A stretch of DNA of 64,000 nucleotides from contig JALAGF010000347.1 of assembly GCA_030167865.1 (NCBI GenBank), forward strand, positions 1 through 64,000, in the 5' to 3' direction. The number at the start of each line of letters is the position of its first letter. Position 1 is the stretch's first letter. Shown here piece after piece: positions 10,868 to 62,299 of the stretch. The notes under the pieces were generated by a model. That model saw only the letters and a program-made list of their open reading frames with translations, did no database searches and had not been told where the DNA came from. The position numbers were made by a program, and so were the translations under genes. The stretch comes from Craspedostauros australis. Taxonomy: Eukaryota.

Positions 10868-13279
10868 TTAGAGCAAGTCGGCAACATCCATCGGCATCTC
10901 GGTAATCTCAGTGTTGTAGAACTGTTCGATATCGCGAAGGTAACGAACATCCCCCTCAGTCAAAAAGTTGATGGCCACACCCTTACGTCCGAAACGTCCG
11001 GAACGGCCGATACGGTGGATGTAGTTCTCGCGGTTGGTTGGCAGGTCGAAGTTGATGACCAGAGACACCTGCTGGACATCGATACCACGGGCGAGAAGAT
11101 CGGTGGTGATCAGGACACGGGAGGATCCGGTACGGAACTCGCGCATGATGATGTCACGCTCTCTCTGCTCCATCTCTCCGTGCATGCAGGAGACGGTGAA
11201 GTCCTTCTTTATCATCTCCTCCTGGAGCCAGTCGACCTTGCGTCTGGTGTTGCAGTAGATGATGGCCTGGGTGATGGTCAAGGTCTCGTACAGATCGCAG
11301 AGGGTGGCGAGCTTCCACTCCTCCTTCTCGATGGCAATGTAGAACTGCTTGATACCCTCGAGAGTGAGCTCGTCCTTCTTGACAAGGATGCGGACTGGAG
11401 TGCGCATGAACTTCTGGGTCACCTCAAGCACATCGAGTGGCATGGTGGCGGAGAAGAGGCAGACCTGGACCGTTTCTGGGAGGAACTTGAAGATGTCATA
11501 GATTTGGTCCTTGAAACCGCGGGAAAGCATCTCATCGGCCTCATCGAGGAAGAACTGACGGATGTTGTCGAGGCGGAGGGCACGACGGTTGATCATGTCG
11601 GAGACACGTCCTGGGGTTCCAACCACGACGTGGACACCTCCCTGGAGGGTGCGGATGTCGTCACGCACGGCGGTACCTCCGACGCAGGCATGGACCTTGA
11701 TGTTCATGTAGTCGCCGAGGGCAAGGACGACCTTCTGAATCTGCTGGGCCAACTCACGGGTTGGGGCCAGGATCAGGGATTGGCACTGCTGGACCTTCGG
11801 GTCGAGCTTTCCGAGAGTACCGATCGCGAAGGTCGCGGTTTTTCCCTGTTAGTTTTGTGTGTGTGTGTGGAGGAGGAGGTGAGAAGACGAGATGAATGCG
11901 TTGTTGATTGCACAATTGTATTGCGTATTCCGCATGGTGGCATAGATAAGTTCGATGTGAGGTATTGAGTGAGAGCATGGTGGTTGTGCAAGGTATGTGC
12001 AGCTGTTCACGACCAGGCCACAGACATATATCGTTGCTGGTGCTGCTGTTGTGGTGTCATTGCGGTCAGACTTCGAGTTTGGATTTTTCAGACACGTCGA
12101 GGGTGACTCTTTTCAGACTCGAAAGATGGTTAACAAATAAATCTTCATCCCTTTCGTTGCTGCTGTCATGCTGGCATCGCGCAGGGAAAGATCGGCTGCT
12201 GCTTTCAATGCGTGTCCACATCTTCCAACCTGTGTGGCGGGAGGTGTGAATTGTGATTCGTGCTGTGGGCTTTCGTCTCCCCGTCACAAGCCACAGATCA
12301 ACCTGCCACGATGCTGCCTTCTCGGTAGTCGGTTTTGGCAACGCTTGCTGCGTACGGAGGCCTCCATGTTGATTGGGAGCCGCAGAAGCCTCACAATCGA
12401 CGACATCCTGGGCGCGAGCAACAGCGGCGCCGATGACAACGACAGCGGCAGCAGCAACAACAACGACATCAGCGCAATTCATACAACGCGTACATGCTGA
12501 AGGATCATGACAACAAGGAACTCACGGTACCGGATTGGGCCTGGGCGATGAGATCGTGTCCCATAATCGTTGGGCGCACGGCTCTCTGCTGGATGGCAGA
12601 TGGCTTCTCGAAACCGTAGGAGTAGATTCCGCGGAGGAGCTCCTCTGGCAACTCCATGGCATCGAAGGTCTCGATGGCCTCGTCCCAGTTGGTGTCGAGA
12701 TCGGCATCACTGATGCCGCCCGGCGGGGCCTCTCCCTCTGGGAGAGGTTCCTCCTCGCGAGGAGGTTCTTCACTGTGGGTGGATGTGCGTCACGAGGCGG
12801 AGCGACGAGAATGGGAAGCCGGTGACACGATGGACGCAAAGCAGGGAAATAGCAGGATTGCGGCAGATGTGAGCGGATGTGAGTGGCCTGAAGGAATGTG
12901 TGCAAATAGATCTGGAGCACTCGTCGGGATGTGGTAACATGACGCCATGCGCTATTGCATGAATCAGCTATCTTGAGTAACTACCCATCGACGATGTTGC
13001 TGCTTGGCTGGGACCACGATCCCTGTGCATCCGCATGTGCGACAGCAGAAGGCGACCGCGGCGGCTTCGCCATCTCGCATTTCTCCCCTGCATCGCGAAA
13101 AATCACCTCGCATGACGGTTGTTTGCGGTGGCAACACCACTGCAGCGCGGCCGTATTGTCAAGCATCTTCATTGAGGGTGTTCACAGTATCGCAGAGTGT
13201 ATCATGGCGCGCCGCAGCGACGACGATCCGCAACGGAGCATCAGGGCAGCACATACCTTGTTGGCTGTTCGTCACTCAT
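10868..13279 (-). CDS. EIF4A: Eukaryotic translation initiation factor 4A (DEAD-box helicase); exons 13279-13257, 12772-12526, 11845-10868
   Basis: Q motif [37 protein letters not shown] and [10 protein letters not shown]. Both introns are GT-AG and phase-compatible. Confidence 0.96.
12063..12151 (-). ncRNA. Candidate intronic box C/D snoRNA (snR39B/SNORD2-like)
   Basis: Lies in eIF4A intron 2 on the host strand: gg-ATGAAGA (C-like box) ... ACCATCTTTCGAGT-CTGA (guide plus D') ... CTGA-cc (D). The guide is complementary to the conserved LSU rRNA segment GACCCGAAAGAUGGUGAAC. Confidence 0.6.
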
Positions 13280-14342
13280 TTTCGTCTTTGTTTTTTGTGT
13301 TCCAACTGAGAGCGCTTGTTGGTGCTGCACCTGCTTCCAACCACGAAAACGAAAGGGAACTCCAACAAGCCTCGTCGCGAAGTCGACACAACCACACGAT
13401 GAAATACGGCAGCTGGTGCTGGTTGCCCAAACACACACCACGCGCGCAATGCTGCGACACAGCGCACACAAAGGCAACACGCCACACGCTGCCCGCACAC
13501 ACAAGAACCACACAAACATGCCAGCGCCATCTGCCTGTCCCACGTTGGCGAAACTCCTGCACCACACGCGTCCAGTCGTGCTCCACCAAATGAATTTTGT
13601 TTTCTACGGCTAATACCAGTATTCATCGGGATGCAATGTCGTATTCGAGTTTTCGGCTGGACTTCATTCACTCGTGAATAAACGAGTGGCGGACAGACGC
13701 AACCACGTGGATTCGTCCTTTTTGTGTGGCCGAAATGAATGGAGCAGCATCGTATGGGACGTCTGATCTTCGTACGTGTTGTGTGCACGACCAAAAGCGC
13801 GGCTCCACGATCTGCTCACAAGATACCCCCAAACCAAAACACCCGAGGATGCCCGAAGACCACAAAAGAGCAAACTCGTTCGGAGAACTTCTGTGGAGGC
13901 TGATAGAGAACACTCAGTCTTGGCTCTTGGCTCTTCGGTCGTTGCAAGAGTATAGTCGTCCACAGGAAGTCAAGCGGAAGCGCTTGGTCCATTCTGGAGC
14001 ATTCCTAATCGCATGTATTGTATAATGTTATACGCAGAATGCAACAGAGATGATGGTAATCATGCTGTGGAGAATGCAGACGAACAGTTTGGACTGAGTT
14101 GCGTACTCCACGAGTAGTAAATGAATAGGACTAGCCAGGCCTTTTCGGGGATAAGAGCGCTCGTTTCGTGTGCGTGATAGAAGAGAGTGGGGCCGAATGA
14201 TGTTATGATTTGCAGGATGACCGATGTCATGTTTCGGTCTTCATGGCGACATGTTACCCTACAGCGCCGTACCATTGCAGCGCACGGTTCCAGTCTTGCA
14301 TGAATGTGGGAGACGCTCATTGGATTCCTTGCTCTTCGGTGG

Positions 14343-17300
14343 CTACTGCGCAATGCTGCGCACGATGACACCGCGCGCCTCGTCGAGACGGTAACCATTC
14401 TCGGTGAAGCTCTCGCCCCTGCAGAACTCCATGATGTCGTAGATGCGTCTCTCCCGAGCTCTGCTCTCCAATTCGTCGAGGGGAATTTCCAAGGTGTCCA
14501 GCAGATCTTCGGACAGGTTCTTCTGCCGCAATCGAATGACCTGGTACATCTGCTCCTTTCGGAACATGTCTTGAAGGATGTGGAGTAGCAGATGCGCGCG
14601 ATCTTCGCCGCTCGTGACAAACTTGGCGAAGCTGCGGCGTAAGCTCCTTCGGACGCTGAACTTTTGCGCGGTGATGAAGCTCTCCAGCATCATGCGGATG
14701 GCAGCGTCGACGTCGTCATCTCGCACGTAGTCCCGAAGGTGCATCTTGGCATGCGCCTCGGACATTCGCATGATGGACTCGATGTGCCGAACAGCGATGG
14801 GGACACCTCCCGAATTCGCTGACTCGCGACGCAGCGCCACGTACAGCGACGTCACCTTCTCCTGATCGAAGGTGTTGCCGCGGAGAATCGGTCGCACGTT
14901 GGTGCGCGCGTATTGGATGTACTTGCGCAGCATTTCCTGGCTGATCGTACCCGGCGCAGTTGCCGCAGTGCGTTCGGGGAAGTTCGCCGTGCCGTTGATG
15001 ATATCCACGCCTGGGGCAGCATTCATGTGACTCGATGTAACGAAGGTGGCAAGGCGCTCGTCGGCGACCGGGTCGACAATGTCCTGCAGCACGCAGAGGA
15101 TGTCAAATCGTTGCAGGATGGGATCAGTCAGCTCGACATTTTCGGCAAGCGTGTGAGCACTGTCGTAGCGTCCGCCGATTGGATTGGCAGCAGCAATGAC
15201 AGAGCATCTGGCTTGCAAGGACGTGACAATACCCGCCTTCGACACGCTGATGGATTGCTGTTCCATGGCTGGAAGGGATGGATTGCGAACAAAGACGGGC
15301 GTTCGTTATTGAAGTGTTACGCAGTGCAAAAGTGCATGACGTTTTGTTTGGTACCCGCAGCCATGACATACCATGGCATTGCATGGTATGACAGTTGTTG
15401 GCGAGTTATGGTCAAGTCATGGACAAGTCATGGACAACGACAAGATGTGTCAGAATTTGGTTGAATAGATCGCAAAATGTGAGCGCAACAGGTAATGATC
15501 CAGAGGCTGGTATAGTGCTAGAAGAGCAGAGTGCAAGATTTTTGCAACGGCTGCATTTGCATCAGCATGTGTATCTGCATCTGCATCTGTCACCACCTTC
15601 TCCACCAATTGTACAAATGCACAGTGCTGACATACCTTCGTGGATGGAGGTCCGGTCCTGCTCGTTCATCTTGTCAAACTCATCAATCAATGCGACACCT
15701 TGGTCAGCCAGCACGAGGGCTCCGCCCTCCAAGGTCCACTCTCTCGTGATGGGATCCTTGTGCACGCCGGCTGTGAGACCGACAGCACTCGCTCCCTTGC
15801 CGGTGCTGTACACGGCGCGCGGCGCTGTGTTCTCAGCGTACTTCAAGAACTGACTCTTCGCCGTTCCTGGATCCCCCAGCAGCAGGACGTTGACGTCACC
15901 ACGCACGCGGTGCTTGTCGTTGACGTTCTTCGCAACGCCACCGAAGAGACTCATCGCCAGCGCCATCTTGCAGTTCTCGTGACCGAAGATACTTGGGGCG
16001 ATGCTCTTCACGATGCGTTGGCCGATGTTGGGATCGCGCGACAAATTGAGGATCTCGCGGACGTCAGCCTCCGAGAGATTCTTGGCGCTGGAGGCATCCT
16101 CACGCTTCCGAATGTGGTTGGCCGACAGGAACGTGGAGAAGACGGGGAAGCCTGACTTCAGCGTGAGATGGGGGTCGAACGCATGCTCGTACACGCCCGT
16201 GACTTCGATTTCTTCACCTGGTCTGGCGATATCGATCAGGTCGTTCGCAAGCAGGACCTCCTTCGTGCGTGGCACTCTGCCAGGAGGGACGGAGCCTGGC
16301 GTTTCCTGCAGGTTGACCCTCTGGAGATTGCGATACTCGGATAACGATGGGTGCAGGCGGAATGCTCCGCCAGAGCATGAGGGGCATTCGTCAGGAGCGT
16401 AGGCAGCCGCCGCATTCTTTCCAGCATCTCCCTCCACACGAAATGGCCCCAACTTTTGCCTGCAACCTTGGTTGACGCACTGGAACGTGGCGGACTGAAG
16501 TTGCGGGTAGATGGCTGACCGACGAGTAACGACGCCGTTGACTTTGACAAGGCAATCGAGATGCGACCTTCGCAGGTCTCGCAGGGAGTCGGTGATGGGG
16601 ACGTCGCTGATGCGAACGTGGATTTCTGATTTAATGGCATCGTACGAAGGGAAGAGCATCAGGGTGTGACGCGTCGCGGCCTCATTGAGAACCTCGAACA
16701 TGTCCTTCGGTGCATCCGCCAACCAGACGGCCAGGATCGGTTCCATCTCCATGAGGTGCAGGTAGGAGACCTGAAGGGTTGACAGGTTGGAGGCGCACAT
16801 CGTCCTGATCTTCTGTTCGTAGATGCCGTTTCCCCTTCGCCGTCTCTGTTCGTCGCCCACCGAATCTTCACGGAAATGACGCAGGAACGCTCTGAATTTG
16901 CGCTGGATCTCGCGCCACGTTCGGTCCTGCGCAATCCACTCACGCAGAGGCACGTCGAATGCTTCGATATTGATTTGGTCTTCGCCATCGAGATCCTCCT
17001 CGTCCGTCTCGTCTTCGACCTCATCCCCCTGCTGCTCATCCACGCCGAAAATTCCGCGACGTGCGCGTCTTGCTTCGTCATCTTCATCCGTCTCCATGAC
17101 GTCAAGGGCCGCACCGTACAGACCTGCGTTGCGGCTGGATTGACGATCCCTCGTCGACAGCGCGGCTTCGGCTGCCCGACGTTGATCCACATCCATTGCC
17201 GAGTACTCCCTGTTATCAATCCCCTCGGTGCCGTACGTGTCCAACGCAGCGATGCGCTGATAATCCCTTTCGGCATTTTCCAGCAGGTCCTCGCCTTCCC

Positions 17301-46659: not shown

Positions 46660-47819
46660 TGCTGCGCTTCGTCTCTTTGGCTATCTCCGTTGTCAAGTGG
46701 TGGTGTGCAGTGGTGTGCAGTGGTTTGAAGCGGAGTTCAGTGAGCTATTGTCGATTGTCTCTCGGTTGCGTGCTTGTCCTGTTGGTGGTGTACAACGTGG
46801 GACGTGCAATGTGGAATGCGCAATGACTTCGCTTGGTTGCCTTGCGTACTTGTTTCAGATGGCTCCAATGATGGATGTCGTATCCTGTTTGGGTGCAATG
46901 CAGGCAGAGTGCAAATCTTACACCACAGCACTGTTAGAGCAGGTCGTAGATCAGTATTCGTACTGAACACGCGTACTGCGCTGAACGAGCGGTGGACGAT
47001 GATGTTGCTGTCGTCACGAAAGGATCTCAACCATCAACGGGGGATCGACGCGATTGATTGATGGGGCGAGCGATCGGTCGGTCGATTTGGCTTGTTCCCT
47101 TGGTTTAGCTCTTTTCGCTTTGGCAAGGTGGTGACAACCATTCCTCATCGTGACATTCAACCCACCCAAACTCGCACACGGACTCCGCCAAAAAGAGAGG
47201 TCCATCCGCAGTCGTCGTGATGTCCTTCACCCCCTCCCGCACCATTCAACAGCTGAGAGTCGAACGTCACACACCGAAATTCAACAACATCGACAGCACC
47301 AACATCAACAATCAACGCACTCGTATCCGCACGCGCACGTCAACCACACATCAACCGTCCAATTGCGCGCGTTGGCGATCATGATGACGTATCCATGCCA
47401 ACCACCTTGCGACGCGTTTTCATTGGTCCCACACGTGACACATGGGAACATACGATCTTACAAAATATCGCTGTTTCTTCATCAAAATATCTCCTAACTG
47501 TCAAAACGTGGATTTCTGTCTCGCAAATGTGCGGTTGAATCTGTGGATTCGACCCAAGACTCAATTCGTGACACGCCTTCAACATCAGCTTCGGAAAAAA
47601 TGAGAACCATCCACGAATCCGCAAAACATCTTCCTGTCTCCTTCGCGAAGTCCAACACCCAACTTGCACGAAGCCCGACACCTCCGCCCAACTCAAAAAG
47701 GAACTCCGAATCGTGTTGCCTTCCCACCACGACCACATCTTGCCCACTATCCTTCCTCGACTCACACCATCAGTTCTTCGAAAGCCCCGCCAACAGAAGC
47801 ATCCTCTCTCTCTCCAGAG

Positions 47820-49850
47820 ATGGAGAGAGGGGTGGAAGACCATCGAAGCAAAAGCAGGAACATGCCATCTATGAATCCAATACATTCATCAGCACCATCA
47901 GGTGCAGCATCAACAACATCGTCAGTGACAACAACATCATCCGTGACGACGACTGCCCATGATGCACTTCAGGCCAAGCAATCTCTCATCTCCAACAATT
48001 ACAAGCCTCCCGTGCCGACCAACGTCCAGGAGTATGTGCGGTTGATGAGTGCAATGTCCAGCTACAAAGGTGACGACGATGACATTGACAATAACGACGG
48101 CGACGCTGGCAGTGGCGAGCCATCATCATCACTCCAACACAAGCGTAGGAGCAGGAAGTTCAAGCCAAGAAAGCAAACGGCGCTCGTAAATCTCGGATAC
48201 GCATGCCGGGTGGCGGCAGTGGCTCGAATCCTTAACTCCTTCATTCAGTTCCATACAACACTCTCCTCAAACAGCAACAGCGGCAGTATCAGCAACGGCA
48301 CGAAGCAGCCTGCCGATGACATTTCCTCTCCAACAGTTAACATCGTCATCATGGGATGCGGCCTGGACATCATCGGAATGTGGTGCCATTCCTTGGCACG
48401 GTCCCATGTGCGCGTCATTGAGCTGGACGTACCCTCTATTTGCACACTCAAACGCGACATTCTCTTGAAGCAGAATATCGTGGTGCCAGTGGAAGAAGAG
48501 GAAGAGCCATCGTCCAAAACCGATGACCGTGTGCGCTTTCATGGCACCATCGTGGATGCGACAGAATCCACCACAACGTCGACAGCGGCAGAGACGCCAA
48601 ATGTGTGCAACTACTCCCTGCTGTCCGTCAATTTGCGGAACGGCGATGATGTCAAACAAGTTCTCCACGAGGTGATGCAGACGCACAGCAGCGATTCCGA
48701 ACCACTGGCAAATACTACTCATGCTGCCCCGACCTTCATACTATCGGAACTCGTCATTTCCTATCTATCCGCACGAGAGACAAATGACCTGCTTCATGTC
48801 TGCAGAACTGTGTGCGATCAATCGCCCAACAGCATCTTCGCAGGATTGGAACCGTTCGCGCCAACAACAACAGACACTTCTGAAGTCAACACTGCAACTG
48901 CAACTGACAGCGATGGCAGGGTGGCAACTCCGATCATCAATGTTCTGGATGGATACGTGAATGCGTACTGTCACAAGTTTGAAGCCAAGTTATCACGAGG
49001 CTATGCGACAACTTTAGGTCCGAATGCAAACGATCCACCGTCAACAACAGCCACGCCTGCATCGTTGCAATCCTTTCAACCGCTCGGTGCAACATGCGCA
49101 GAGATCGATTCCAGACTGGTCCAGGCTGGCTTCCACACCTCCCACACTCATCATCTGGGGTTGGCATTGAGAGGCTGTCCCATTGCCACGCCCGAACTTT
49201 TCGATGAGCATGCTGCATTTCTGTTGCATGTGCAGTCCTATTTTGTGACATGCGGATTCGCAGCCAATGCCGACGTCGTCTTGGAACGATTGTTGTGCCC
49301 GTCATCCTTTCCGAAGGACGTTGCGCCACGGCTGAATTTGCAACGCAAGCACATCCTCACTGTGATCGAACCTCGCGATGACGGTGCCATCCGTAGCTTG
49401 TTCGAATGCACGTATCGACACCAGACGCAAGAGTTCACCGCAGTCCGCAAGATGGTCAAGGCGGCGTTGCGCAAGGATCTATCCACGTCCGAATCGACAA
49501 TCGGGGTGCGGTATCGACAAAATGGTGGCTGTTTCCTGGTTGCCATTCAACAGCAACAACGTGAAGTGTTGGGATTCGTTGGATTCCAACGATGCTGCCA
49601 GGCTGATACGGCAGAGATCGTGCGGCTAGTTGTAGATGAGAATCATCGACGGAGAGGCATAGGGATGGAATTGCTGGACATTGCCGCGTGTGCTGCGCAA
49701 CGGCGCGGCTACACCAAGCTGCGGGCGACGACCATCGACAAGCTGGAAGGTGCGCGTGCCCTGTACCAACGTTTAGGATACAAGGAGATCGAGACGGCCG
49801 ACATCGGGTCGTCGCTGATGCTGCACACCTTCGAGAAGGCAATTGCATGA
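47820..49850 (+). CDS. Leucine carboxyl methyltransferase (LCMT/TYW4-like) domain fused to a GNAT acetyltransferase
   Basis: TAHDALQAKQS, NLGYACRV, IVIMGCGLD, ELDVPSICTLK, PTFILSELVISYL and ELFDEH match LCM motifs. RLVVDENHRRRGIG...ARALYQRLGY is a GNAT. Start uncertain (47820 or 47862). Confidence 0.85.
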   Translation: MERGVEDHRSKSRNMPSMNPIHSSAPSGAASTTSSVTTTSSVTTTAHDALQAKQSLISNNYKPPVPTNVQEYVRLMSAMSSYKGDDDDIDNNDGDAGSGEPSSSLQHKRRSRKFKPRKQTALVNLGYACRVAAVARILNSFIQFHTTLSSNSNSGSISNGTKQPADDISSPTVNIVIMGCGLDIIGMWCHSLARSHVRVIELDVPSICTLKRDILLKQNIVVPVEEEEEPSSKTDDRVRFHGTIVDATESTTTSTAAETPNVCNYSLLSVNLRNGDDVKQVLHEVMQTHSSDSEPLANTTHAAPTFILSELVISYLSARETNDLLHVCRTVCDQSPNSIFAGLEPFAPTTTDTSEVNTATATDSDGRVATPIINVLDGYVNAYCHKFEAKLSRGYATTLGPNANDPPSTTATPASLQSFQPLGATCAEIDSRLVQAGFHTSHTHHLGLALRGCPIATPELFDEHAAFLLHVQSYFVTCGFAANADVVLERLLCPSSFPKDVAPRLNLQRKHILTVIEPRDDGAIRSLFECTYRHQTQEFTAVRKMVKAALRKDLSTSESTIGVRYRQNGGCFLVAIQQQQREVLGFVGFQRCCQADTAEIVRLVVDENHRRRGIGMELLDIAACAAQRRGYTKLRATTIDKLEGARALYQRLGYKEIETADIGSSLMLHTFEKAIA

Positions 49851-50065: not shown

Positions 50066-51355
50066 CTAGGCGAGGGTCTCCTCAGCGAACTTGGAGAAGG
50101 CCTCGACGGTGCGGACCTCGCTCTCGTACTTGACGACGGATCCGTCTGGCTTGATGACGTTGACGGTTGGGAAGGATTCGGTGTTGAGGTTGGCCTGGAC
50201 GAATTCACGCTCTTCGTCTCCGCGGAAGCTGTAGACATCGAGGTCGGAGTCGGCGGCGAACTTCTCGAACTCCTCCTCCATGTTCTGGGAGAACTGGCAC
50301 CATGGGGCGTAGACGACCATGACGGCTGGCTTGCCGGCCTTGACGGCCTCATCAGCGGCGCCGGTGGTCTCGATCTTCTTGACGGCGGACTTGTCGGTCT
50401 CCCAGAGGTCGCGGTCCCAGGTGCGCTCGGCTCCGGCAACGTGGATGCCGCACTCGGTCTTGGTGGATCCGTCCTTGTTGGCGAGTCCGACGAAGCGTCC
50501 CTTTCTCTCGCTGGCGTAGTCCAACCACTGGGTCTTGTCACCTTCGAAGGAGAAGTCGGCGAACTTGACGCTGCCGTCTTCCGGGATCGGGATGGTGTCC
50601 TTGGCATCACCGATGCTTGGGTATCCCTTGGCGTGGAGTGGGTGGTGCGGGATCTCGTACTTCTTGATGTAGTCGAAGGTATCCTCGAGGGTCCAGTACG
50701 CGAGCGGGTTGCACTTGGCGAGTCCACCTCCGATTGGGGCGTTCTCGAACATGTCAATCCAGGCACGCTCGAATCCCTGCCACCGGGTGCGTCCGTTGAT
50801 CATGCAGTCGGTGTTGAGGGTCTTGAGTCCGCGCTGGAATGGCTCAACCTTGCAGACGCGGTCGTACTCCTCGATGTTCTCCTTCCAGAGGTCGGCTCCG
50901 TAGCGCTTGTCGTAGGCTGCCTTGTCGGCGATCGGGATGCCCTCGGCACAGAAGACCTCGGCCTTGAAGTTGTAGAACTCCTCGATCTCCTTGAGGAAGT
51001 CCATGGTCTCTGGGAAGAGGTGGAAGGTGTCGACGACCATGATCTTGGCCTTGCCGCTCTCGAGGAAGCCGAGGCGGTGGAGAAGGTGGGTGATGACGAC
51101 GTCACCGGCGATCATGGCGTTGGGGAAGACTGCGTTCTCGTAGTTCTCGCAGGAGATCTTGAGGGCGTACATGGCCTGCTCCTCGAGGTGCTTGAGGCGC
51201 ATATCCTTGGTCTCCTGGATGAACTGCTCCTGGTCGAAGCTGTCGGCCATGTTCATGGTGGTGGTGGGGGTCGTGGAGAAGGCTGGCTTGGTTGGGACGA
51301 AGGCGGCGGCGAATGGGGCGGCGCACAACGCGGTGAAGGCGATGATGTGCTTCAT
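50066..51355 (-). CDS. APR: Plastid adenosine-5'-phosphosulfate reductase, APR-B-like, with a C-terminal thioredoxin-like domain
   Basis: Presequence AAAFVP; VDTFHLFPET, KVEPF, GYPSIGD and ERKGRF..KTECGIH; Trx-like YAPWCQFS...SFPT. Confidence 0.93.
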   Translation of the reverse strand: MKHIIAFTALCAAPFAAAFVPTKPAFSTTPTTTMNMADSFDQEQFIQETKDMRLKHLEEQAMYALKISCENYENAVFPNAMIAGDVVITHLLHRLGFLESGKAKIMVVDTFHLFPETMDFLKEIEEFYNFKAEVFCAEGIPIADKAAYDKRYGADLWKENIEEYDRVCKVEPFQRGLKTLNTDCMINGRTRWQGFERAWIDMFENAPIGGGLAKCNPLAYWTLEDTFDYIKKYEIPHHPLHAKGYPSIGDAKDTIPIPEDGSVKFADFSFEGDKTQWLDYASERKGRFVGLANKDGSTKTECGIHVAGAERTWDRDLWETDKSAVKKIETTGAADEAVKAGKPAVMVVYAPWCQFSQNMEEEFEKFAADSDLDVYSFRGDEEREFVQANLNTESFPTVNVIKPDGSVVKYESEVRTVEAFSKFAEETLA

Positions 51356-52089
51356 GATGTTGGTTGTATTTGTGTTGTGTTGTGTCGTGTCGTTTGTCGT
51401 TAGACTTGGACCTGAGTTGATTTTATGTCGATGTTGGCTGAAGCAAAGATTCTTTGTTTGGGAGTGTTTCGGATTTGCGTTGTGTGCTCTTTGGGTGTTG
51501 CACTTTCCTTTTTGCGTTTTGCGGCTGCGAGTACGTTTTGGGTTTGGCGCAATGGTTTTGTGAGGTGCGTGCACCTGTGTCTCTCTGTCTTTTGGTTGGA
51601 ACAAGAAGGATTCGATTCGGAGGATGCTGACGGTCGAGGCACAGAAAAACAAACGTGGGACGCAGGGTTCGGAGGTTCCCGGAGATTTGACACCACCGAT
51701 CGTGTGTTGGTCTGTCGAGTCCAATCCCATTCAACCACGATACAAGGAGCAACTGTGGGTATCCACGCTGCGTGTGCGGTGGCATTGCTGTGACGTTTGT
51801 TTTCTGTGGCTGGGAGGCGCCGACACCAAAGATACTTCGAGTTGACGAACGAGAGGTCTCAAGATACAGAGTTCGTACCGTTGTGTCCGATTGTCGTGTT
51901 TCTTGCGTGTGGGTTGGCGGACAGGCGATACTGCGCTAGTTGACGCTACAATATTGAATCTAGAGAGTAGCGCTCACTTGATTTGCTTGCAGAACATATG
52001 CACTGTACGACTCTGCCTCGACCCGCGTACCACACTTTGGTTCTACCGCATCGTGTCTGCACTCGTGCACTCGTTTACCTCAACTCTCC

Positions 52090-55000
52090 TCATGGCTGCT
52101 GATGGCAAATCGCATGAGCTCTGGTCGGTGGCATTGATGGGATGGCATCAGCCTCGGCCAATAGTCCGTTGCGACAGCAAAACAAGTTGTCTGCGTCGAG
52201 AGTCTCTTTCAGACCCTTCATGACGCTGAGCATCGTGGGCGATGAGCGCTCCTTCAACAAGGACGATCGCAGCTTGCCGATGCCATGATGGTGACTCAGC
52301 GAGCCGCCGTGCTCCAGAATGGCCGCCTTCGCGGCATGCTCGAGATCCGAGTAAGTGTCGCTCGGTTTTGGAACGCCTTCGATGCTGATGCAAAGGTAGA
52401 AGTAGATGCACGCCCCTTCGTGGTAGAGCTGGGTGATGCGGCATCCGACGAATGGAGTGCCTGGCAGGTTCCGCGCAAAATGCTCTTTCGTGATGCGATC
52501 GTGCGTGCTGCTGATCACGGTCTCGATCTTGGACCACGGGACGAAGGTCTCGAAGGACTCGCCCAGCAAATCGTAGTTCATGGCGAAGTCCCGTAGGTAC
52601 GCGATCATGAACGTGAGCTCGTATCCCGACTGTCCAACCCTGGATCCCAGAGAGATCCCGCCATGCTGCGTTGCCAGTCTGGCGATCTCGCGCTGTTGGC
52701 TTGCGACCTCTGCGGCTCTGCCTTCGTAGGATATGGTCGCGCAGACGACGGAGTGCGGGTGAAACGTTCCGTTACCAACCACGGAGGTCAGGGCGAACTT
52801 CATGAATGACTCAACTGCGCTGGTCACCATGCCGTCCGAGTCGGGGCGCAGGGCCTGACCCAGGCGGAAGTGAGCGTTGTCCATCAATCGGATGCTGGCG
52901 GGTGCCAGAGCACCGAGCTTGGACACGTCATGGACGAAGCTCAAGCCAGTGCCGAATGACGGCAGCAAGATGCTGTCGAACTTCTTCACCTCTGGCAATG
53001 GCCAAACGCGGATGATCGCTCTGGTGATCACTCCCAAACAACCTTCTGAACCCAAGATCAATGACAGCATATCCAATCCTTCTGACATGCGCCCTGGCAC
53101 CGTTCTCGAATGGCACCGTGCCGACTCAACGAGCTCGCCCCCCTCCTGCTGGGTGGAAGTCACAAAGGTCACAGACTTCACGATGTCCTCGATGTTGCCG
53201 TACTTGGATCGTTTCATCCCGCTGGCCTTGGTCGCGATCCAACCGCCGAGCGTGCTGAATTCGTAGCTGTCTGGTTCATGCCCGATGGTGAAGCCACGGC
53301 TGGCCATCTCTTCGACGAGCTCCTTGCCCGTGATGCCAGCCTGAACCTGCGCAAGCCCGTCCTCCTCGTTGAGCCAGAGCACCTTGTTCAGCAGCTTCGT
53401 ATCCAATGCGATAATCGAGCGTGGCTCCTGTTCGTACGTCGGACATCGTGTTGCCGATGTAACGTTCGTTCCACCACCGACTGGGATGATGCACCACCCT
53501 CGTTGTGTCGCCAGCTGGATCAATCGCGACATCTGCTCTTCGGATGAAGGCCGGGCCACGACGTCAGGAATACGATGCAACGTACCGTATCGGAGAGCGT
53601 ACACATCATTCTGAGAATGGCCGCTGCACTGCCTTGCGCGATCCCACGGGTCCGTGGACACATCACCCACGACCTTTCGTATCTCATCAAGGTCTGATTG
53701 GCCGAGTTTGCAGTTGGTGTTGGTGTCGCTGTCGTATAGGGAGGGATCGAATGAGCATGCGGCTGGTTCGGTCATGAGGTTGATCTTCACACCCATTTCA
53801 TTCTCGATAAACGGCAGCAACTTGCGAATGCGCTTGTTACAAAGCCTGTACCGTGCCCCCTTCATGGTCACGTACGGTCTCCCCTTGCTGTCCGATGCAA
53901 CGATGAATCCAGAATCACCAAAGCCCCAATACCCCAGCTTTTCAGCGCCGTTGGTGTCGTTGATGCCGTGCTTCGCATATCGCACCAAGTTATCGCTGGG
54001 CGCTGATGTCGATGATGCCATCAGTGCACTGATGGTGTGAATCCCACTATACTGCAAGGCTTGCAATGCCTGCAATGCTTTACATGCAGCAGCATACACC
54101 AACATGCGCGGGAGAGATGCATCCTGCCTCAACGCGATCTGCATGACATGCTCCGCCGTCGTTTTGCTTGTCATCCCAGATTGTTGCAATTTTTCAACTG
54201 CGGTCTTCGCTGCCTGGTCTGCACCATCAAACAACTCGATGAAGCCTTTCAAGAGGGCATTCGCACACGCATTCGTGGTCGCGCTCGGGTTCATAGATTG
54301 TGACTTCTCCGTCAGTTGAGGACTCGTCAACTTGAATCTGCTCCGCACCAGATCAGTGTGGAACGCAAGCCACGATGACCACCGGGGCCTCGAAGCTGCC
54401 AATGAACTGGCCAGGATGTGCGAGAATTGAAATGCCACGGCACACAGCTCGCTACGATCTGTTGGGATGCCTGGAGGTCTTGGCATGCCATCTTCGCTCG
54501 GCGTCCCTTGATCGGAGCAGCAGCAGCAGCATGGTGGCTTGAAGTTGCACCTGAGCTCAACCATACCATTTTGGACTGTGTTCGAATCTAGTTGCAACAG
54601 GCGGGAGATAGCCTCCACATGGTAGTCTGTCACAAACGTTTGCTGTTGCTGTCCAAGCTGGATGTCTTTCGCAAGCGCCTTGTAGCAGCATGCGGCAGGA
54701 TCATGTCCGTTGGGCATGCGAATGGGCTGATCGGCAGCGATATGAATCTTCCCAAGCTGCACGAATCCCTTGCCAACTTGCTGGTTGCGCCAGTAGGTTG
54801 TTATACAACAGTGTGCGTTCCAACGTTTGGGGAATAGGGAGAGGCGATTTGGTAACGGACGGTCAAGAGAAAGGGAGTCGCGATTAGACACACTGTTGAA
54901 TTGCGTGTCGATAGGTACTCGCACATCGGAGCAAATGGTAGAATTGGACACACAGTGGAGAGCACTGTTTGTGTCCGGCGCTTATTGGGATGTTCAGCAC

Positions 55001-58000
55001 ACACAGCACATTCCAATCCGCAGGCACATTAACCCACGGCACACAAAAAGCACGGATCGGACCAAGCCAAACCAGACCAAACAGACCCACACGCAGCAAG
55101 GAAGGCAAGGCAAGGCCAAACGCTGTGCTTCGACCATAGAGTACAGTGTCCGCTCACTCACCATCAGCCATGCCAAGAGACCAGAGAGGCTCAGGTGGTT
55201 GCGATTCGCGCCGCCTGCTTCGGGCACCAGCAGACTCTGTTCTGGAATGACTTCGTAGTTGATGGAAATGGGGACCACGATATGACTACCACCCGATTGC
55301 TGAAGATGCTTGAGAAATCCTGTCTTGGGCTCGAGATATCGTCGATCGCGGCTTCGCTTGCCCTCGATGAACACCTCAAAGCATGGCACCGATTGCTGAC
55401 TGGCGTCTTCCTTCATACTCCTCAGCTGGCTCGTGAGAGCAGGGTCTTCAGTTTTCCTTCCTCGTTTCACGTACAATGCACCCATGCAGCGTGCGAGGAA
55501 TCCAACGATAGGCATGCGTTCAAAGTCAGTGGCTGCTGCGATCATGGGCAGTTCGATCCCCATCTCCGGAAGTGAGAAGATGGCGTAGCTCAGCAGCATA
55601 AAATCGAAAAATGAACGATGCGTCGGAGCAAGGACGATCGTCGTCATCTGGCCATGATCCTCGGACGTCGCTTGTTGAACGGCTTGGAGGAAGAATTCCA
55701 TGTCGAAACTCACTTCCGCGCAAGTCCTTCTTAGTATGTGCGAGAAAAAGTAGCCAGTGAGCCGGAAGACGATGTTCCCTTTCGGCTGCGACATAGCCCA
55801 ACCGAAGTCGCTCAGGCATCGCGCGTGCCGTCGGCCACCGATCATCACTTCCATCCTTCCAGATGATGATTTGCAGTCTGTTCCCTTCTGACCAGCAGCA
55901 GCATGAGCATGAGCAGCAGCATCATTGTGCACTTCAGCGGATTTGCTTTGCGCCAACGAAGCTTGTCGCTTGGTGGCCATGTTGCGATTGAAGGCATGCG
56001 CGGCTTGCACGCAACGTGTCATGTACCTATCACCCTCAACAGTTGTCGGCGCAACCAGCTTGGAACGGAAGTGGTATGTTTTGTTCATGAATGGGAAGAA
56101 CAGAAGGGGCAAGTCGAGGTATCCCACCAACATGTTCAACGCCGGATTCTGCATGTCCAGGTAACGAAGCGCCGCCTGAACGAGATACATCGGTTTCATC
56201 ACCAGCCATGCATGAAGCGTCGCGAATGTCTCCCATCCCATCCCAACTCCCGGGAACAGCTTGGTTGCGAAGAGAAGTCCGATGAAGGCGACTGGTCGGC
56301 TGAAGTGATCGTAGATGGCTCCAATTTGACAAGTCGCGAGACTGTAGTCGGTCCACGTGAAGTGTGTGGACGGAGGAGAGCATGCGTCCCATGTCACATT
56401 GTGAATGGAGTGCCGTGGCACATCCTTGCAGGCAGAGGCATTTGGTTTTGATAGAGTCTTGGACCTGTCGATACGAAATGCTTCGTGACTGTCCCCGGAG
56501 GAATGGAAGCTGCTGATACCTGTCAGGTTCTCGGCGGGTCGGATCTTGACAAGATCGGAATCCTCGCTATCCACCTCGTCCGAGGAGGCCAAGGAGTCCT
56601 CTTGCGCAGCATCGGGAGACTGGACGGTGCTTCCGGCTGGACATTGGAAGGCCTTTTGCAGCACGCAGCGAGCCACCACGTCCACGGGGATGTATGGAAC
56701 TCTGTGACTTCCAAAGCACCACAGATTCCACTGGTAGAATAGATACAGGCTGGACGCAGCAACGATGGTTGATGGTTTTTGTCCGGCCCAACCTTCGGAA
56801 GGATTCTCAAGGGCAGGACCGACGATGCTGGGCCGCAGGATGATGGTCTGGACGGACGGATCGGCACGGCTCAATAGCAGACGTTCACAAATGCATTTGC
56901 TGAACGTGTACGTGTTCGGAAATTCCAAATCGTGCATTGCTTGTTGGGCGAACAGCTGGTTCCCAAGCATGGATCGGTAGATCTTCGCAGCAGCGTCGTT
57001 GTACAATCCGCCAAGATCGAACAATCCCTCGCCTAGGGGTCGTTCCGAACTCCCCGTCTGTCCGCCATGCACGAAGGCTGTGCTGATCTGAATGAATTTG
57101 ACGGATGGGTTTGACAGCCGGCCGGCAAAGTCCTGCATAATCAACGGCGCAGTTATGTTGGATTCCGCAGCTTCATCCAGGCTTTGCTTGAAGCTGACAG
57201 AGGCAGCGCAATGAATCACGACGTCGATGCTGTCATCTTGCTGGAGTTGCTGCAATGCACGTCCGTCGCAGATACCTGCATTGGATTTCGTTATGTCACC
57301 TTCCACAACTCGCACTAATGTTTCCTTCTCCGTGCTGGAGAGAAAGCCGAACATATCCTGGGATGCCAAGAGCTGCTGGATTCGTTGCTGCGCAGTCTTT
57401 TGCCGTCTTGGACGGCACAGCACGAGGATCTGTTCGATTCCAAAGCGTTTGCGATGCTTCAGCAAGTCACGCAGGATCATGGACCCCACAAATCCCGTTG
57501 CGCCCGTCAAAAATACTTTGCGTCGGCATGTTGCTGCATCTTGTGAGAGCACCGCATCCTGATTATCCGCAAATAGGGAATCGATGATGGGGTCGTCTTG
57601 ATTCTCATTATTCTCGCTGTCGTCCTTCGGCGCCGAAACCAAATGCTTCATGAACGGTCCGCTGCGTCCAAAGTAAAATGTGGACGCGGCTGACCTCAGC
57701 AGCATCAATCCTGCAATGTACAACGCGTACACCGCCATTGTCACTCGAATTGCGAGCCAACACGTTGACAGCACCAACGCTGCCACCGGCATGCAGCCCA
57801 TTGAACGCGCCATGATGGCAACTGCAATGATTGGGACGACTGTCCAAGTCGAAAAGAGTTTGATGCGGGTGCTTGCATTGCGCGAAGATGTAGGCATGAT
57901 GGGACGTCGTAGACAATCCGCCATGTGTTGCATCTGTTGTGAATTCAACTCCTGGCTGGCAATGGGAAGATACACGATATGATCCATCAAGTAATCTGTA

Positions 58001-60132
58001 TTCACTGTTGTTGTTGTCGTCGTCGTCGTCGTCGTCGTCGTCGCTGTGAGGTTGGAGTGCTGCTGATGTGGACAATTGTTGGGTTGCGATGCTTTTGGCA
58101 TCATCATTTTCGAGACGGAGCAGAGCTGTGATGCACCAGAAGTCACATCGTATCCTGCGTGCCGCATTCGCATGCTGACTTGTTGCGGTTGGTCAACACA
58201 GATTGGGAACAGCCAGTAGGTATGCGAGATGGTTTGGTGCTGCTTGAGATTGCCGTTTCGAACAATGACATTGCCGTCATCGTTGAGGCTCTTCATGTTG
58301 GATTGTTGAAGTAGCTGGGTCATGTGTTGACAACGCTGGATTCTGGTATGGACGCTACGCAGAACCCCTTCTCGCTGTGCTTGCTGCAGTCGACGCCGGA
58401 GCAACAGGAGCTGAGCCAGGCACGGCTGTTTCCGAACATGCTTCGTGAAGTGCTGTGCATCGTCCGTTCGAAAATTCCGAATACTGGATGTGATTAGGAC
58501 GTCGACATCAATTCGCACGGCGTTGCATACATGTACCAATATTCCGAACAGAGACGGTGATGATGCGATGACCGTCACCAGGGCCGATTTCACGACTTTT
58601 GCGAAATACTCCGTCGTGGATTGCCGCTGATAAAAGGACGATTGTAGTCGGTCCATGGAAACTGCGTCCGCTTGATTCTTGACAACGGCAATGCCTCCAC
58701 CGATGGCCGTGGCAGTTTTGATCGTGCCGAAGGAAAAGAAGCAGGCGTCTGCGAATGCATGGCCGCGGTAGATGCAATCGTTTTGATCAGAACTCTGCCA
58801 TCGAGTTTGATACGGACTCATGCCCGTGAAGCATTCGGCACAATCCTCGAGGAGATCGAGTTGACGCCCATCGGCAAGCTTGCGTAGTTGTCGCCAATCC
58901 GATTCGGTGGTGGAGATCATGCCAAACGGATGTACGATGATGATTGCGACTGTTTTGGACGTGATAGCCGCTTGCACAGCCGCCACATCGACGCGGACCT
59001 TTGTTCTGTGTGGAATGTCGATGGGGACGCATCGTAGCTGATGGTACTGGATGACCTTCATCATTCCTGGGACAGTGATGGGAGGCACGATGATGATCTC
59101 TGCATCCTGCGTATATTGCTTGGACATGAGGTAGAGATCGAGCAGGGATCGAACGGAGAGGCCCGAAATGACATGCCGAGTTTCGTTCATGTTCTGTTGC
59201 CAGATGCGTTGGATGGATGCTGTTATCTGCTTGGATTGTGACCGAACTGGGTTGTGGATGAAATTGAAGTACGACCGGATGCAGTGCCAAACAACGAAGA
59301 CGAGATCGATGGTTCGAATGTCAATGCGCCCACGAGGCAGGATGGGTTTGATCCCGAGGCGGTCCATAACCCATTGACTGATCCATGACATCATCGCCGT
59401 TGCTGCTGTTGCTGCTGTTGTTGGTAATGTTGCTGATGCTGCTTCTGTTTGAACTGGCAACTGCAGTGGAAAGGGAGGCTGAGTTCGATTCTGACTTTGG
59501 CCTTGTAGATGTTGAGGTTGCGCTCGTGCTGTTGGTCGGAGCGTGGCGGAATGAGTTGCAGGTCTTGAGCTGGCATCGTCCTGCTGCTGTGGTTGCTGTT
59601 GTTGATCACAATCATCGTCATTGTCATCGTCATCTTCAAATTCGCCGTCGTTGTTGGTGTCGTCAATGTCATCGCTGTTGATGGACTGCAGATAGGATTG
59701 GAACAAGCGTCGGCAATGATTGCCTGTTCGGTTATTCTTCGTCGCCACGAGCTTGATGTAATTGATCATCGCCTCCTCTGCGAGTTGCGTGCTGCAAGAT
59801 AGCCATTCCTTGTACTTTGCTCTGGCCACGACGTTGAACACAGAGGGCATGCTGTCATTGGGACACGGGCCGTCCTTGACGAGCTTGTAGAGAGCGTACA
59901 ACCGAAGCTTTTCATCCGTTGTAACATCGTCGCCTTCGATGGAGGACGGTGGAGCGTTGCGCACCTGCGACACCACCTCATCGAATAAGGCTTGCAGCCG
60001 GTTGATCGTCGCTTTGCTCCTCCTGTTCATCAAGCCATCATCGTGCTGACCAATACGGGTGCCAGCATCGTTGCCCGTGTCATTTACTGGTGATTTGCCA
60101 TCGTCGAGATCTGCGGATTCATTGAACGACAT
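52090..60132 (-). CDS. Giant multifunctional ether-lipid synthase: ACBP - DegT-type PLP enzyme - TM - fatty acyl-CoA reductase - DHAP acyltransferase - alkyl-DHAP synthase; exons 60132-55162 and 54780-52090 (about 2550 aa)
   Basis: ACBP: KLRLYALYK..ARAKYKEW..AMINYI. DegT: VHPFG, LLEDCAE, FSFGTIKTATAIGGG. FAR: LTGATGFVG, HCAASVSF, NTYTFSK, RPSIVG. Acyltransferase: PTHRSFFD, FIEGKRSR. AGPS: WGFGDS, RIPDVV, PVGGGTNV, GHEPDSYEFSTLGGW, GSEGCLGVIT, HHHGIGK. Phase-0 intron GTGAGT(55161)...ACCAG(54781). Confidence 0.85.
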
Positions 60133-62299
60133 TGCGAGAGCTGCGCCCAATCGTCGTCACGCAAGGCAAGAGCAGAGAAGAGCACGAGCGATCTCCTGAT
60201 GTATGGTAAACAGTCGCACGTAAATGAGGGTTGATGGACGTCGTCGTACAGGTTTCACGTCGAGTAGTTGTATGTGTGGTATGGTATTGTATTAGTATCG
60301 TATGGAATGTATGCTTGTTGGTTGGCACCACGCCTGCGGATGAGGCCGGTGTTGTTGTCAGCGTACTCGTATAGTAGGTAGCAAGAAGAAGTCTCTCTTT
60401 CTGCTGTTCTTGCTCTTGCTCTTGCTCTTACTCTTGCCCGCGACCATGATCGCAGTCGAGAGGGGAACCAACCACGATGACGACGATGACGAAGACGGTG
60501 ATGGCGGCAACGTTGTCTTGTTGGTGTCACTTTCCGCGATGGTTGGTGCCCACGAAGGAAAATCCAAAATCGTGGACTGACACCGGATGAAAAATGTGCA
60601 CCCATCACAAAGCGTGTGTCAAACACATGCCCACGACTCGCTTGCCACCACCAATCAATTCCTTCGCCATCTCCTCTCAGTCGTGCTTGCTCGATAGAAA
60701 AAACCATCTAATCGGCTGAATCGAAGAACTTGCCCATCGCAAGTTCAACGCTTCCGGCTCTTTCGGAGAAATTTGTATCGATTATTCAAGCGTTAATATT
60801 GAATACGGTATTGCATGTGTATCACATGGTTGCTGTTTCCCGAAAAGTGAAGTGTTGTTCTGACGTCAATCGTTTTGGCACCACGTATGCATGAGCATCC
60901 AATCAGAATTCAGTATTTGTCCATCGCACAATCTGCGATGCTGGCGATGTGTGCGCGGCGTACGTGTCGGCAAGAGCTCCACTTTTTGGCCTCGACACTC
61001 CTTCGCCAGTTCGCCGCCACGGCCAGATCGTCATCGTGTTTTTGCGTCGCTGATGCGATCAGACGCTGCGACACGCACGCACAAGCACATGCGTGATTTT
61101 GCTGGGTGGGTGGCAATCTTCCGAGACACTGAGAGAGATGATGACCTCGTCAACTGCTTCCGCAGGCACCCTTGCTTTCCCAGTCGTCAATTTCAACCAA
61201 CCCAACCAAGGCCAAACACACAGACGCAGACGCAGAACAACCAGGCAGAACAAGTACCAACAAACACGCCTTTCTCACTGCGTGACATCCACGCATACAC
61301 GTCCATGGTATGGAAGAGTGCACACATCACGATTAATCCACGTATTGCCAGCATTAACGGCGCTATTAGTACGTCCCACCACCGCGAGACAGCGTTGCAA
61401 TTGCTCTGCTCCACTTTCCTTTCCTCCGTAAAGCAATACCAATACTCCGCCCTCAAGTGCGACACCAACTCAACCAGAGGCGACGATTCACCACAACCAC
61501 CAAACCAAACCAAACCTCTCAGACAAAGACAAAGACAAAGGACAAACAGCACTACCACAACCTCAAGGCAACACCAACAAAACGACTGCGTCGCCTTCTT
61601 TCCATCACACGCATCCTCCGATCGGATAGATTCTCACAGCGCTCACAAAATCAAAACAACCGCACAATTGCACACCAACACGCCAACACGAGTTCCTCAC
61701 AACATTCTCACAACTCCATTCTCCCATCCATCATCTCAGAAGGCACACAAAAAACGAAAGAAGAAGACACAACAACGGCTCGAACTCGCGCTCCATCACA
61801 TCAGTTTTCCGATCAGGTGAGTTCTGACAACGTCGGCGTTCCTTGCGTGAAAGAAAAACATCAACTTCATTTTCCTTGCGAAGCCATCGAGAAGTGCCGT
61901 CATTGTGACGATTCCGTCTTGTGTTCCTACGTCATTCCGTCTCCGCACACGCAATCATCCATCAGACATGCCCCAGAAAACTCACACGAACATCAACCAT
62001 TCACTGCCCTGCTTGCACGCCCACTTCCATCTCTGCTCGCATGGCGCGTTGCCGACCGCCACCGCGATTCATTGCGTGATTGCATTGGCCCGCCATCGCC
62101 TCGCATCATCGCAAAAAAACATGCGACGTCTTTCCATGCCTCCACACCATCACAAACACACAACAACGCACCCTGACACGGATGAACAACGACCAACGAC
62201 CAACCCTTTACGCCACATCACACGGATACTCCAAACGAAACAAAGATACCAACCATACACACCAAACCCTCAGCCAAATTCAATCCAATCTAATTCGCA

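Follow-up and report, generated by a model that had tools for sequence, protein, structure and literature searches.

A predicted five-part ether-lipid multi-enzyme with an aminotransferase domain, probably encoded by a single gene of Craspedostauros australis

Ether-lipid synthesis is a textbook subject for animals, ciliates, amoebae and myxobacteria. The question raised by one locus of the alga Craspedostauros australis (GenBank assembly GCA_030167865.1, contig JALAGF010000347.1, positions 52,090 to 60,132, minus strand) is whether the same chemistry may there be carried by a single polypeptide and, if so, what a pyridoxal phosphate (PLP) enzyme would be doing in its midst. The window, by which we mean the whole stretch of DNA that was analysed, comprises positions 1 to 64,000 of that contig. 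Within it, the locus encodes, in this order, an acyl-CoA-binding domain (ACBP), a DegT-type PLP enzyme, a hydrophobic hairpin, a fatty acyl-CoA reductase (FAR), an HxxxxD acyltransferase and an alkyl-dihydroxyacetone-phosphate (alkyl-DHAP) synthase (AGPS). The reading preferred here, to which we give a probability of about 0.78, is that 52090-60132 is one nuclear gene with a single 381-nucleotide intron, and that its 2,553-residue product would be a multi-enzyme forming alkyl-DHAP. One gene with its enzymes in this order is what a preliminary description, made from the sequence, had proposed, and the fused homologues described below support it.

Is the locus one gene or two? Open reading frames (ORFs) were listed from stop to stop over the window, Pfam domains were scanned for, and a spliced protein model was built by script with its junction after residue 1657. 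The parts are the following:

54994 to 60156, minus strand: upper ORF, 1720 codons from stop to stop
52090 to 54981, minus strand: lower ORF, 963 codons from stop to stop
55162 to 60132, minus strand: exon 1, 1657 codons, starting with the ATG at 60132 and ending with an ATG codon (Met) directly ahead of the GTGAGT donor; homologues cover about 60003 to 55162-55168
54781 to 55161, minus strand: proposed intron, 381 nucleotides, GTGAGT...CAG, phase 0, with two in-frame stops inside
52090 to 54780, minus strand: exon 2, 896 codons followed by a stop codon at 52092-52090

The two ORFs share a frame, with only a TGA (54996-54994) and a TAA (54984-54982) in-frame between them, and in the upper ORF no ATG precedes the one at 60132. 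The phase 0 interval that the preliminary description had taken for an intron is indeed present in the sequence; its donor side reads ...CTG ATG/GTGAGT... at 55162/55161 and its acceptor side ...AACCAG/CAA GTT... at 54781/54780. When ten fused homologues were aligned to the window (tblastn), all ten matched both flanks and skipped the interval. Three of them abut exactly at the junction (P0025 at residues 1469/1470, P0005 at 1467/1468 and P0034 at 1617/1618), and in the others 0-7 residues are absent there or the flanks overlap shortly. P0025 is a complete MMETSP transcript, whose residues 1-1469 correspond to 59997-55165 and whose residues 1470-2287 correspond to 54783-52150. Bacterial FAR-acyltransferases (FAR-ATs), which are intron-less and encoded by one gene, run 58-60 residues beyond junction residue 1657: residues 440-700 of P0176 match spliced residues 1442-1717, and residues 432-705 of P0156 match 1428-1715, both crossing the junction. 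Because the fused homologues and the intron-less bacterial proteins align across the junction, the interval appears to be spliced out; and because the bacterial alignments continue past it, the lower ORF does open with what remains of the acyltransferase fold, which had been suspected from its first residues.

Another possibility is that there are two genes, the upstream one ending at the TGA at 54996, within 55161-54781, and the AGPS gene having its own promoter and an internal Met start. The two in-frame stops between the ORFs would be natural in such an arrangement, as would the many database entries of 1400-1700 residues that stop inside the acyltransferase domain or shortly behind it. However, those short entries are probably truncated ORF calls, broken off at an intron or where a contig ends. 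Roughly the first 60 residues of the lower ORF complete the acyltransferase fold of the intron-less bacterial proteins, its earliest in-frame Met is residue 89 (window 54717), the ends of the interval are canonical and in phase 0, and 102 relatives are fused, three of them being MMETSP transcript ORFs (two marked complete). Two separate genes are, on this evidence, very improbable. What does weigh against the single gene is that splicing in this organism would be read from its relatives; one sequencing run (X1; share 0.07, its kind a guess) gave a single 609-nucleotide contig at 52000-52591 and nothing at the junction.

The fused relatives raise the question of whether this architecture is peculiar to the window. 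It is not. The AGPS part was used as a query for longer proteins, and the domain segments of the window were then compared with these by BLASTP. In this way, 102 long relatives of 1693-2906 residues were found in public data. In all of them the acyltransferase is fused to AGPS; FAR is present in 101 and the PLP domain in 90. Their architectures (AT standing for acyltransferase) are distributed as follows:

ACBP-DegT-FAR-AT-AGPS: 51 proteins of 102 (at least 51 in the full five-part order)
DegT-FAR-AT-AGPS: 38 proteins of 102
FAR-AT-AGPS: 8 proteins of 102
ACBP elsewhere in the chain, or ACBP without DegT: 4 proteins of 102
AT-AGPS alone: 1 protein of 102

These proteins come from diatoms (Nitzschia, Seminavis, Fistulifera, Thalassiosira, Cyclotella, Skeletonema and others), from the bolidophyte Triparma, from the dinoflagellates Symbiodinium, Cladocopium, Effrenium and Prorocentrum, and from Pycnococcus and Ectocarpus. 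Their annotation is mostly automatic, either as alkyldihydroxyacetonephosphate synthase or as hypothetical protein. None of them exceeds 58% identity to the window protein, which means that the 102 do not include a fused model from this organism itself. In a FastTree tree of 139 DegT domains, those of diatoms form one clade (42 rows, support 100) that includes the PLP domain of the window, and the domains of dinoflagellates and Triparma lie elsewhere, in a tree with backbone support of 13-89 and with long branches flagged. Seminavis robusta has three paralogues: P0010 with five domains (2374 residues), P0069 with FAR-AT-AGPS and a C-terminal ACBP (1797 residues), and P0076 with FAR-AT-AGPS (1693 residues). 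The five-part family is present in public annotation and appears to be uncharacterised, and it adds three modules to a known kind of fusion. The earlier statement that no five-domain version had been characterised stands, in that the literature search described below found none in print.

What, then, are the parts of the protein? The Pfam scan and Kyte-Doolittle profiles found all the segments of the upper ORF within about 100 nucleotides of the places first given for them, and a complete AGPS in the lower one:

59746 to 59991, minus strand: ACBP domain (PF00887, 61.5 bits against a cut-off of 28.3)
58117 to 59316, minus strand: DegT-type fold-type-I PLP domain (PF01041 at 58594-59181, 68.4 bits against a cut-off of 19.8)
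57700 to 57864, minus strand: hydrophobic stretch of about 55 residues directly before FAR (Kyte-Doolittle peaks 1.6-1.9, spliced residues 757-811)
56665 to 57510, minus strand: FAR domain, NAD_binding_4 (PF07993, 1.4e-42, 146.1 bits; GATGFVG, YTFSK)
54601 to 55851, minus strand: glycerone-phosphate-type acyltransferase module, split by the intron (PF01553 at 55261-55644, 56.5 bits against a cut-off of 23)
52168 to 53973, minus strand: AGPS domain (FAD_binding_4 at 53152-53568, FAD-oxidase_C at 52180-52995; SHHHG loop)

The six Pfam families that had been foreseen all exceed their curated cut-offs. In residues of the upper ORF, they are ACBP at 56-137 (8.9e-17), DegT_DnrJ_EryC1 at 326-521 (8.5e-19), NAD_binding_4 at 883-1164 (1.4e-42) and Acyltransferase at 1505-1632 (3.4e-15); in residues of the lower ORF, FAD_binding_4 lies at 472-610 (1.3e-33) and FAD-oxidase_C at 663-934 (3.7e-28). 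The catalytic positions are conserved throughout the family. The Y/Y/K signature of ACBP is kept in 49-57 of 57 rows, the Y of LY.LYK in 57 and its K in 56. The Y and K of the FAR YxxxK motif are present in 102/102 rows. The acyltransferase carries HRSFFD, a FIEGKRSR block and VPISINYE; in the family rows, the H and D of HxxxxD (HRSxxD) are found in 101/103 and the EGxRSR block in 102-103/103, and its alignment to bacterial FAR-AT proteins spans spliced residues 1428-1717. Neither the Sterile domain of eukaryotic FARs (PF03015) nor the GPAT_C domain of eukaryotic GNPAT and FARAT (PF19277) was reported for the window protein in the Pfam scan. Hydrophobic peaks precede FAR in 13 of the 15 homologues scanned (Kyte-Doolittle), and the stretch is probably a two-helix membrane hairpin. 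Between the domains, a run of Gln codons (59392-59452) follows an acidic, Asp-rich stretch in the linker from ACBP to the PLP domain, and a run of Thr codons (58001-58051) lies in the linker from the PLP domain to the hairpin.

It could be argued that no ether lipid is made at all: the products of FAR and the acyltransferase would be fatty alcohols together with acyl or wax-like lipids, and the AGPS-like domain would serve as another FAD oxidase. The diatom literature consulted reports no sn-1 alkyl glycerolipids, which is consistent with this, the accessible text of one review mentioning only betaine-lipid ethers (PMC5516116). However, the lower ORF matches the guinea-pig AGPS structure 4bby from residue 79 to residue 656 of its 658-residue chain at 5.1e-131, and the closest FAD oxidase structure that is not an AGPS is matched at 5.4e-21. 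The SHHHG loop and the CIYFY segment, which we take to be the His-His-His loop and the active-site Tyr segment of AGPS, have the same letters in the guinea-pig alignment. Of the 103 family rows, 94 have the HHH loop and the remaining 9 have gaps there. A further argument is that the three activities are encoded side by side in bacteria; in the matching operon of Myxococcus, deletion of the AGPS gene MXAN_1676 prevents ether lipids from being formed by that pathway (PMC13012113, main text). That the algal protein makes no ether lipid is hard to credit.

The bacterial proteins are the closest stand-alone relatives of the FAR-acyltransferase module. When the 805-residue FAR-acyltransferase segment was used as a query, the algal-family fragments were followed by bacterial proteins of about 880-900 residues (1e-70 to 1e-84), which carry NAD_binding_4 and Acyltransferase without Sterile or GPAT_C, and the amoebozoan FARATs scored lower (Dictyostelium P0232 and Balamuthia P0230, about 1e-39). 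Fifty-three bacterial loci around FAR-AT-like genes were fetched, 37 of which hold a FAR-AT gene; in 32 of these 37, the FAR-AT gene is immediately preceded by an AGPS gene of the same orientation. The bacterial AGPS is 38-43% identical to the AGPS part of the window, and complete genes match it at 1e-111 to 1e-158. The main text of PMC13012113 describes the same AGPS/FAR-AT gene pair as MXAN_1676-MXAN_1675 of Myxococcus xanthus, the MXAN_1676 deletion stopping ether-lipid formation by that pathway. Judged by these alignments, the FAR-acyltransferase module belongs with the bacterial proteins whose genes adjoin AGPS in operons and not with the FARATs, which bear Sterile and GPAT_C. The functional linkage of AGPS, FAR and acyltransferase in bacteria supports the proposed sequence of reactions, from acyl-CoA to alcohol and from DHAP via acyl-DHAP to alkyl-DHAP. 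The acceptor of the acyltransferase is likewise predicted to be DHAP, from the fusion to AGPS and from the neighbouring AGPS gene in those 32 loci. A different arrangement is found in Kocuria and other Actinomycetota (L045-L050): a FAR-only gene has, some 3 kilobases away and on the other strand, a more distant AGPS-like gene (about 29% identity, about 1e-74).

How does this protein compare with the known systems? FARAT, the bifunctional FAR and DHAP acyltransferase (DHAPAT) of Tetrahymena thermophila and Dictyostelium (PMC13012113, PMC13256971), had been put forward as a precedent on account of the Tetrahymena protein. The comparison holds insofar as FAR stands N-terminal to a DHAP-type acyltransferase in one chain, which supplies both precursors of AGPS, and Dictyostelium P0232 aligns to both modules (E 2.5e-47). 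It fails in the details. Sterile and GPAT_C are present in P0232 and P0226 and not in the window protein, which matches bacterial FAR-ATs at 1e-88 to 1e-101 versus about 1e-47 to 1e-50 for FARATs, has no PTS1-like end, and is fused in addition to AGPS, ACBP, a PLP enzyme and the hairpin. It would therefore work like a FARAT joined to AGPS, yet it appears to lie outside the FARAT lineage. In animals, FAR1, GNPAT and AGPS are three separate peroxisomal enzymes for which the same three reactions are proposed here; the alga, in contrast, has one polypeptide, no visible peroxisomal signal, and two extra domains without an animal counterpart. The bacterial AGPS/FAR-AT operons (Gemmatimonadota, Myxococcota and others) consist of separate genes in the order AGPS, FAR-AT and, at two loci, DegT with a second acyltransferase, whereas the algal order is DegT, FAR, AT and AGPS in one chain, and they lack ACBP and the hydrophobic hairpin.

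The core mechanism would then run as follows. The ACBP domain may serve as a head that captures long-chain acyl-CoA, and the hairpin would anchor the protein on a membrane. FAR would reduce part of the acyl-CoA with NAD(P)H to fatty alcohol, the acyltransferase would place another acyl chain on DHAP, and AGPS would swap that acyl group for the fatty alcohol to give 1-O-alkyl-DHAP. It weighs against this scheme that the activities of all domains are predictions from sequence. Another adverse point concerns location: read by eye, neither the window protein (ending in HQQP) nor any of the 102 relatives ends in [SAC][KRH][LM], and no PTS2-like nonapeptide was seen at the N-terminus. Because there is no canonical C-terminal tripeptide, a peroxisomal location like that in animals and Dictyostelium is not supported. 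The proposal that the fusion serves substrate channelling came from the preliminary description and goes further than these data.

The most unusual part of the protein is the PLP domain, for which the preliminary description had offered no explanation. Its Schiff-base Lys (in FSFGTIK) and PLP-binding Asp (in EDCAE) both align with the corresponding residues of QdtB; the Lys is found in 90 of 91 family rows and the Asp in 88. An exhaustive HMMER search for the subfamily gave 1391 representatives at an E-value of 1e-3 or below and 857 at 1e-10 or below. The fused algal forms score best; next come numerous stand-alone members, about 400 residues long, that are found in bacteria and also in an oomycete, a sea urchin and a nemertean. 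Among the stand-alone members are P0280, P0375 (Diadema antillarum), P0115 (Tubulanus polymorphus), P0276 and P0358 (Hyaloperonospora brassicae), with 27-37% identity to the window domain. A 48-row alignment of the subfamily, in which the Lys and Asp are invariant, has a set of invariant positions (S54, R56, D158, K200, W368 and others), and an AlphaFold (AF2) model from it reached a predicted local distance difference test score (pLDDT) of 85.5 and a predicted template modelling score (pTM) of 0.89. The top PDB matches listed by Foldseek for this model are all aminotransferases, nearly all of them DegT-type sugar aminotransferases, with a probability of 1.00 and 13-22% identity. The PF01041 match spans profile positions 39-215 of 360, and the ESM Atlas search gave only generic DegT clusters. 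The best PDB sequence match, 7n63, was considered as a Campylobacter DHAP transaminase and dropped, its title naming HCAN_0200, an aminotransferase of Helicobacter canadensis. The DegT sugar aminotransferases (QdtB, ArnB, WbpE and DesV) have the same fold as the window domain, with the same Schiff-base Lys and the same Asp for PLP binding, whereas its subfamily has an invariant signature of its own and a lipid rather than a glycan context. By these features, the domain is a conserved, apparently active aminotransferase of an unnamed DegT subfamily.

What might be its substrate? The bacterial members of the subfamily offer some guidance. Two operons (L028 and L034) consist of genes for a phosphoesterase, AGPS, FAR-AT, the DegT-like protein and a second PF01553 acyltransferase, and at L060 genes for a HAD phosphatase and a DegT-like protein converge on genes for an AGPS-like protein and a FAR, the FAR there having a Sterile domain. 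With a profile made from the neighbouring acyltransferases, 12 of 19 bacterial loci were found to have a dedicated PF01553 acyltransferase immediately adjacent to the DegT-like gene; 5 of these 12 were seeds of the profile, which leaves 7 of 14 non-seed loci as independent cases. In P0326, the DegT protein and the acyltransferase are fused. P0312, a metagenomic protein of 1000 residues, has DegT fused to a glycerol-3-phosphate dehydrogenase/oxidase (5.3e-62 to 3da1). Glycerol-3-phosphate dehydrogenase/oxidase is an enzyme that produces DHAP. The contexts named so far point to lipids for the bacterial members. In the P0352 cluster (61 members, some from Acidobacteriota), DegT accompanies a FAD_binding_4 oxidase, members being named decaprenylphospho-ribofuranose 2-oxidase by the Joint Genome Institute. 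P0312 and P0352 look like two-step enzymes, in which an alcohol would be oxidised and the resulting ketone aminated. In one Myxococcota locus (L080), a gene for an FGGY-family kinase (the glycerol-kinase-like family; 12884-14476, plus strand) lies two genes downstream of the acyltransferase/DegT-like pair.

The pathway itself offers a ketone. The C2 carbonyl of alkyl-DHAP needs processing before sn-2 acylation, which is normally the work of a short-chain dehydrogenase/reductase (SDR), as described in PMC13256971. The PLP domain may aminate this C2 keto group in a DHAP-type intermediate of the pathway, in place of or alongside the usual NADPH reduction, and so give a 2-amino, serinol-phosphate-type backbone. 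A triose-phosphate ketone is favoured because the aminotransferase is fused to enzymes that would make alkyl-DHAP, because members of its subfamily stand beside lipid acyltransferases and, at times, AGPS, and because one is fused to a DHAP-forming dehydrogenase. A precedent for such chemistry is Cj1437, which may be a DegT-family protein. Two DHAP transaminases are described, Cj1437 of Campylobacter jejuni, whose product is (S)-serinol phosphate, and the RtxA N-domain of Bradyrhizobium elkanii (PMC11800397, PMC3222319), and they resemble the proposed reaction, by description and not by sequence comparison, in the PLP-dependent amination of the DHAP keto group; unlike it, they yield soluble products that are not lipid-linked. 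That the PLP domain transaminates alkyl-DHAP, acyl-DHAP or DHAP to such a backbone is a tentative proposal, with somewhat less than an even chance of being right. The narrower version is doubtful: in it, the domain would aminate the alkyl- or acyl-DHAP of its own polypeptide to 1-O-alkyl-2-amino-2-deoxyglycerol-3-phosphate (O-alkyl-serinol phosphate), an undescribed backbone, in diatoms, bolidophytes, dinoflagellates and the bacteria with the operons.

Another possibility, and one to be taken seriously without being put at even odds, is that the core works as described and that the PLP domain has nothing to do with the ketone of the pathway. It could provide a head group, serve as a regulatory or oligomerisation module, or use an unrelated substrate such as a sugar; a separate SDR reductase would then reduce alkyl-DHAP, and ordinary plasmanyl lipids would result. 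A head-group route might be the decarboxylation of phosphoserine as by Cj1436, which we take to be a DegT-family enzyme. Cj1436 does decarboxylate serine phosphate (PMC11800397). The solved relatives of the domain, by sequence and by fold, are all aminotransferases or dehydratases acting on sugars, nucleotide-sugars, inososes and related metabolites, and in some subfamily members the fusion partner is a DprE1-like sugar-lipid oxidase. On the other hand, the domain is retained with its intact Lys and Asp in 90 of the 102 fused relatives, the subfamily recurs with glycerolipid-type acyltransferases, with a DHAP-producing dehydrogenase and with AGPS-FAR-AT, and the fusion holds no glycosyltransferase or nucleotide-sugar gene.

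Several results weigh against amination of the pathway's ketone, and those on the operons, on the relatives without the domain and on the DprE1-like fusions also speak for this alternative. The bacterial AGPS-FAR-AT operons mostly do without the DegT-like gene, which is found in only 2 of the 37 loci; the subfamily profile had no real match in any of five further AGPS-FAR-AT genomes. Among 15 Myxococcota loci with a DegT-like gene (one of which, L075, is only 2.3 kilobases long), none has AGPS, FAR-AT, GlpD, a DprE1-like gene, HAD or Metallophos within about 9 kilobases (tblastn, 1e-8). At L061, a GNAT gene is present instead. A general linkage between the DegT-like gene and AGPS, which was entertained, is rejected. 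Nine of the 102 algal relatives have FAR-AT-AGPS and no PLP domain, and so the core works without it. None of the NCBIfam equivalogs is reached (at most 38 bits against cut-offs of 375-650), and the bacterial subfamily members behave alike. The DprE1-like fusions P0342 and P0352 suggest other keto substrates within the subfamily. P0342, which has the same Pfam pair as P0352, was itself tested, among P0342, P0352 and P0346, as a possible DegT-AGPS fusion and was rejected, its FAD part being DprE1-like (about 4e-22 in a PDB search) and only 19% identical to the AGPS of the window. In the phylum of the genome G001, 3 of 301 genomes have the DegT-like gene, which also counts against a general linkage to AGPS.

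The surroundings of the gene may be mentioned here. The next ORF downstream (50069-51730, minus strand, 554 codons) is of the APS/PAPS-reductase type, with PAPS_reduct (9.7e-29) and a C-terminal thioredoxin domain; beyond it, an ORF of 748 codons (47604-49847, plus strand) has a region resembling leucine carboxyl methyltransferase and, at its C-terminus, a GNAT acetyltransferase domain.

Has such a protein been described before? A literature search that covered neither supplements nor subscription journals found no published description of the fusion or of diatom sn-1 alkyl lipids. The main text of a 2026 survey calls AGPS, GNPAT and FAR 'patchy' across the stramenopile-alveolate-rhizarian (SAR) group and does not mention the triple fusion (PMC13012113); its Datasets S1-S5 may list these proteins. 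DHAPAT is said in the accessible text of PMC5755239 to be 'occasionally part of fusion proteins', separate enzymes of Guillardia are treated in that of PMC9244630, and the fusion goes unmentioned in that of PMC8511707 and PMC5516116.

The significance of the finding lies in a conserved protein of 2,200-2,600 residues that would hold every committed step of ether-lipid formation in major marine primary producers and in coral symbionts. The family predicts 1-O-alkyl lipids in these algae, and a single gene suffices for testing the prediction. Its closeness to the bacterial AGPS/FAR-AT operons bears on the debate over a bacterial origin of the eukaryotic ether-lipid genes. In addition, a PLP aminotransferase is placed where the pathway has an unprocessed ketone, and this position, together with the contexts of the bacterial subfamily, leads to a testable hypothesis of a new class of amino-ether lipids and a new enzyme family. 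If the hypothesis were true, the N-acylated form of O-alkyl-serinol phosphate would be a ceramide-like ether aminolipid, and the unnamed DegT subfamily, with its 857 representatives at the stricter threshold, would be one of DHAP-backbone lipid aminotransferases.

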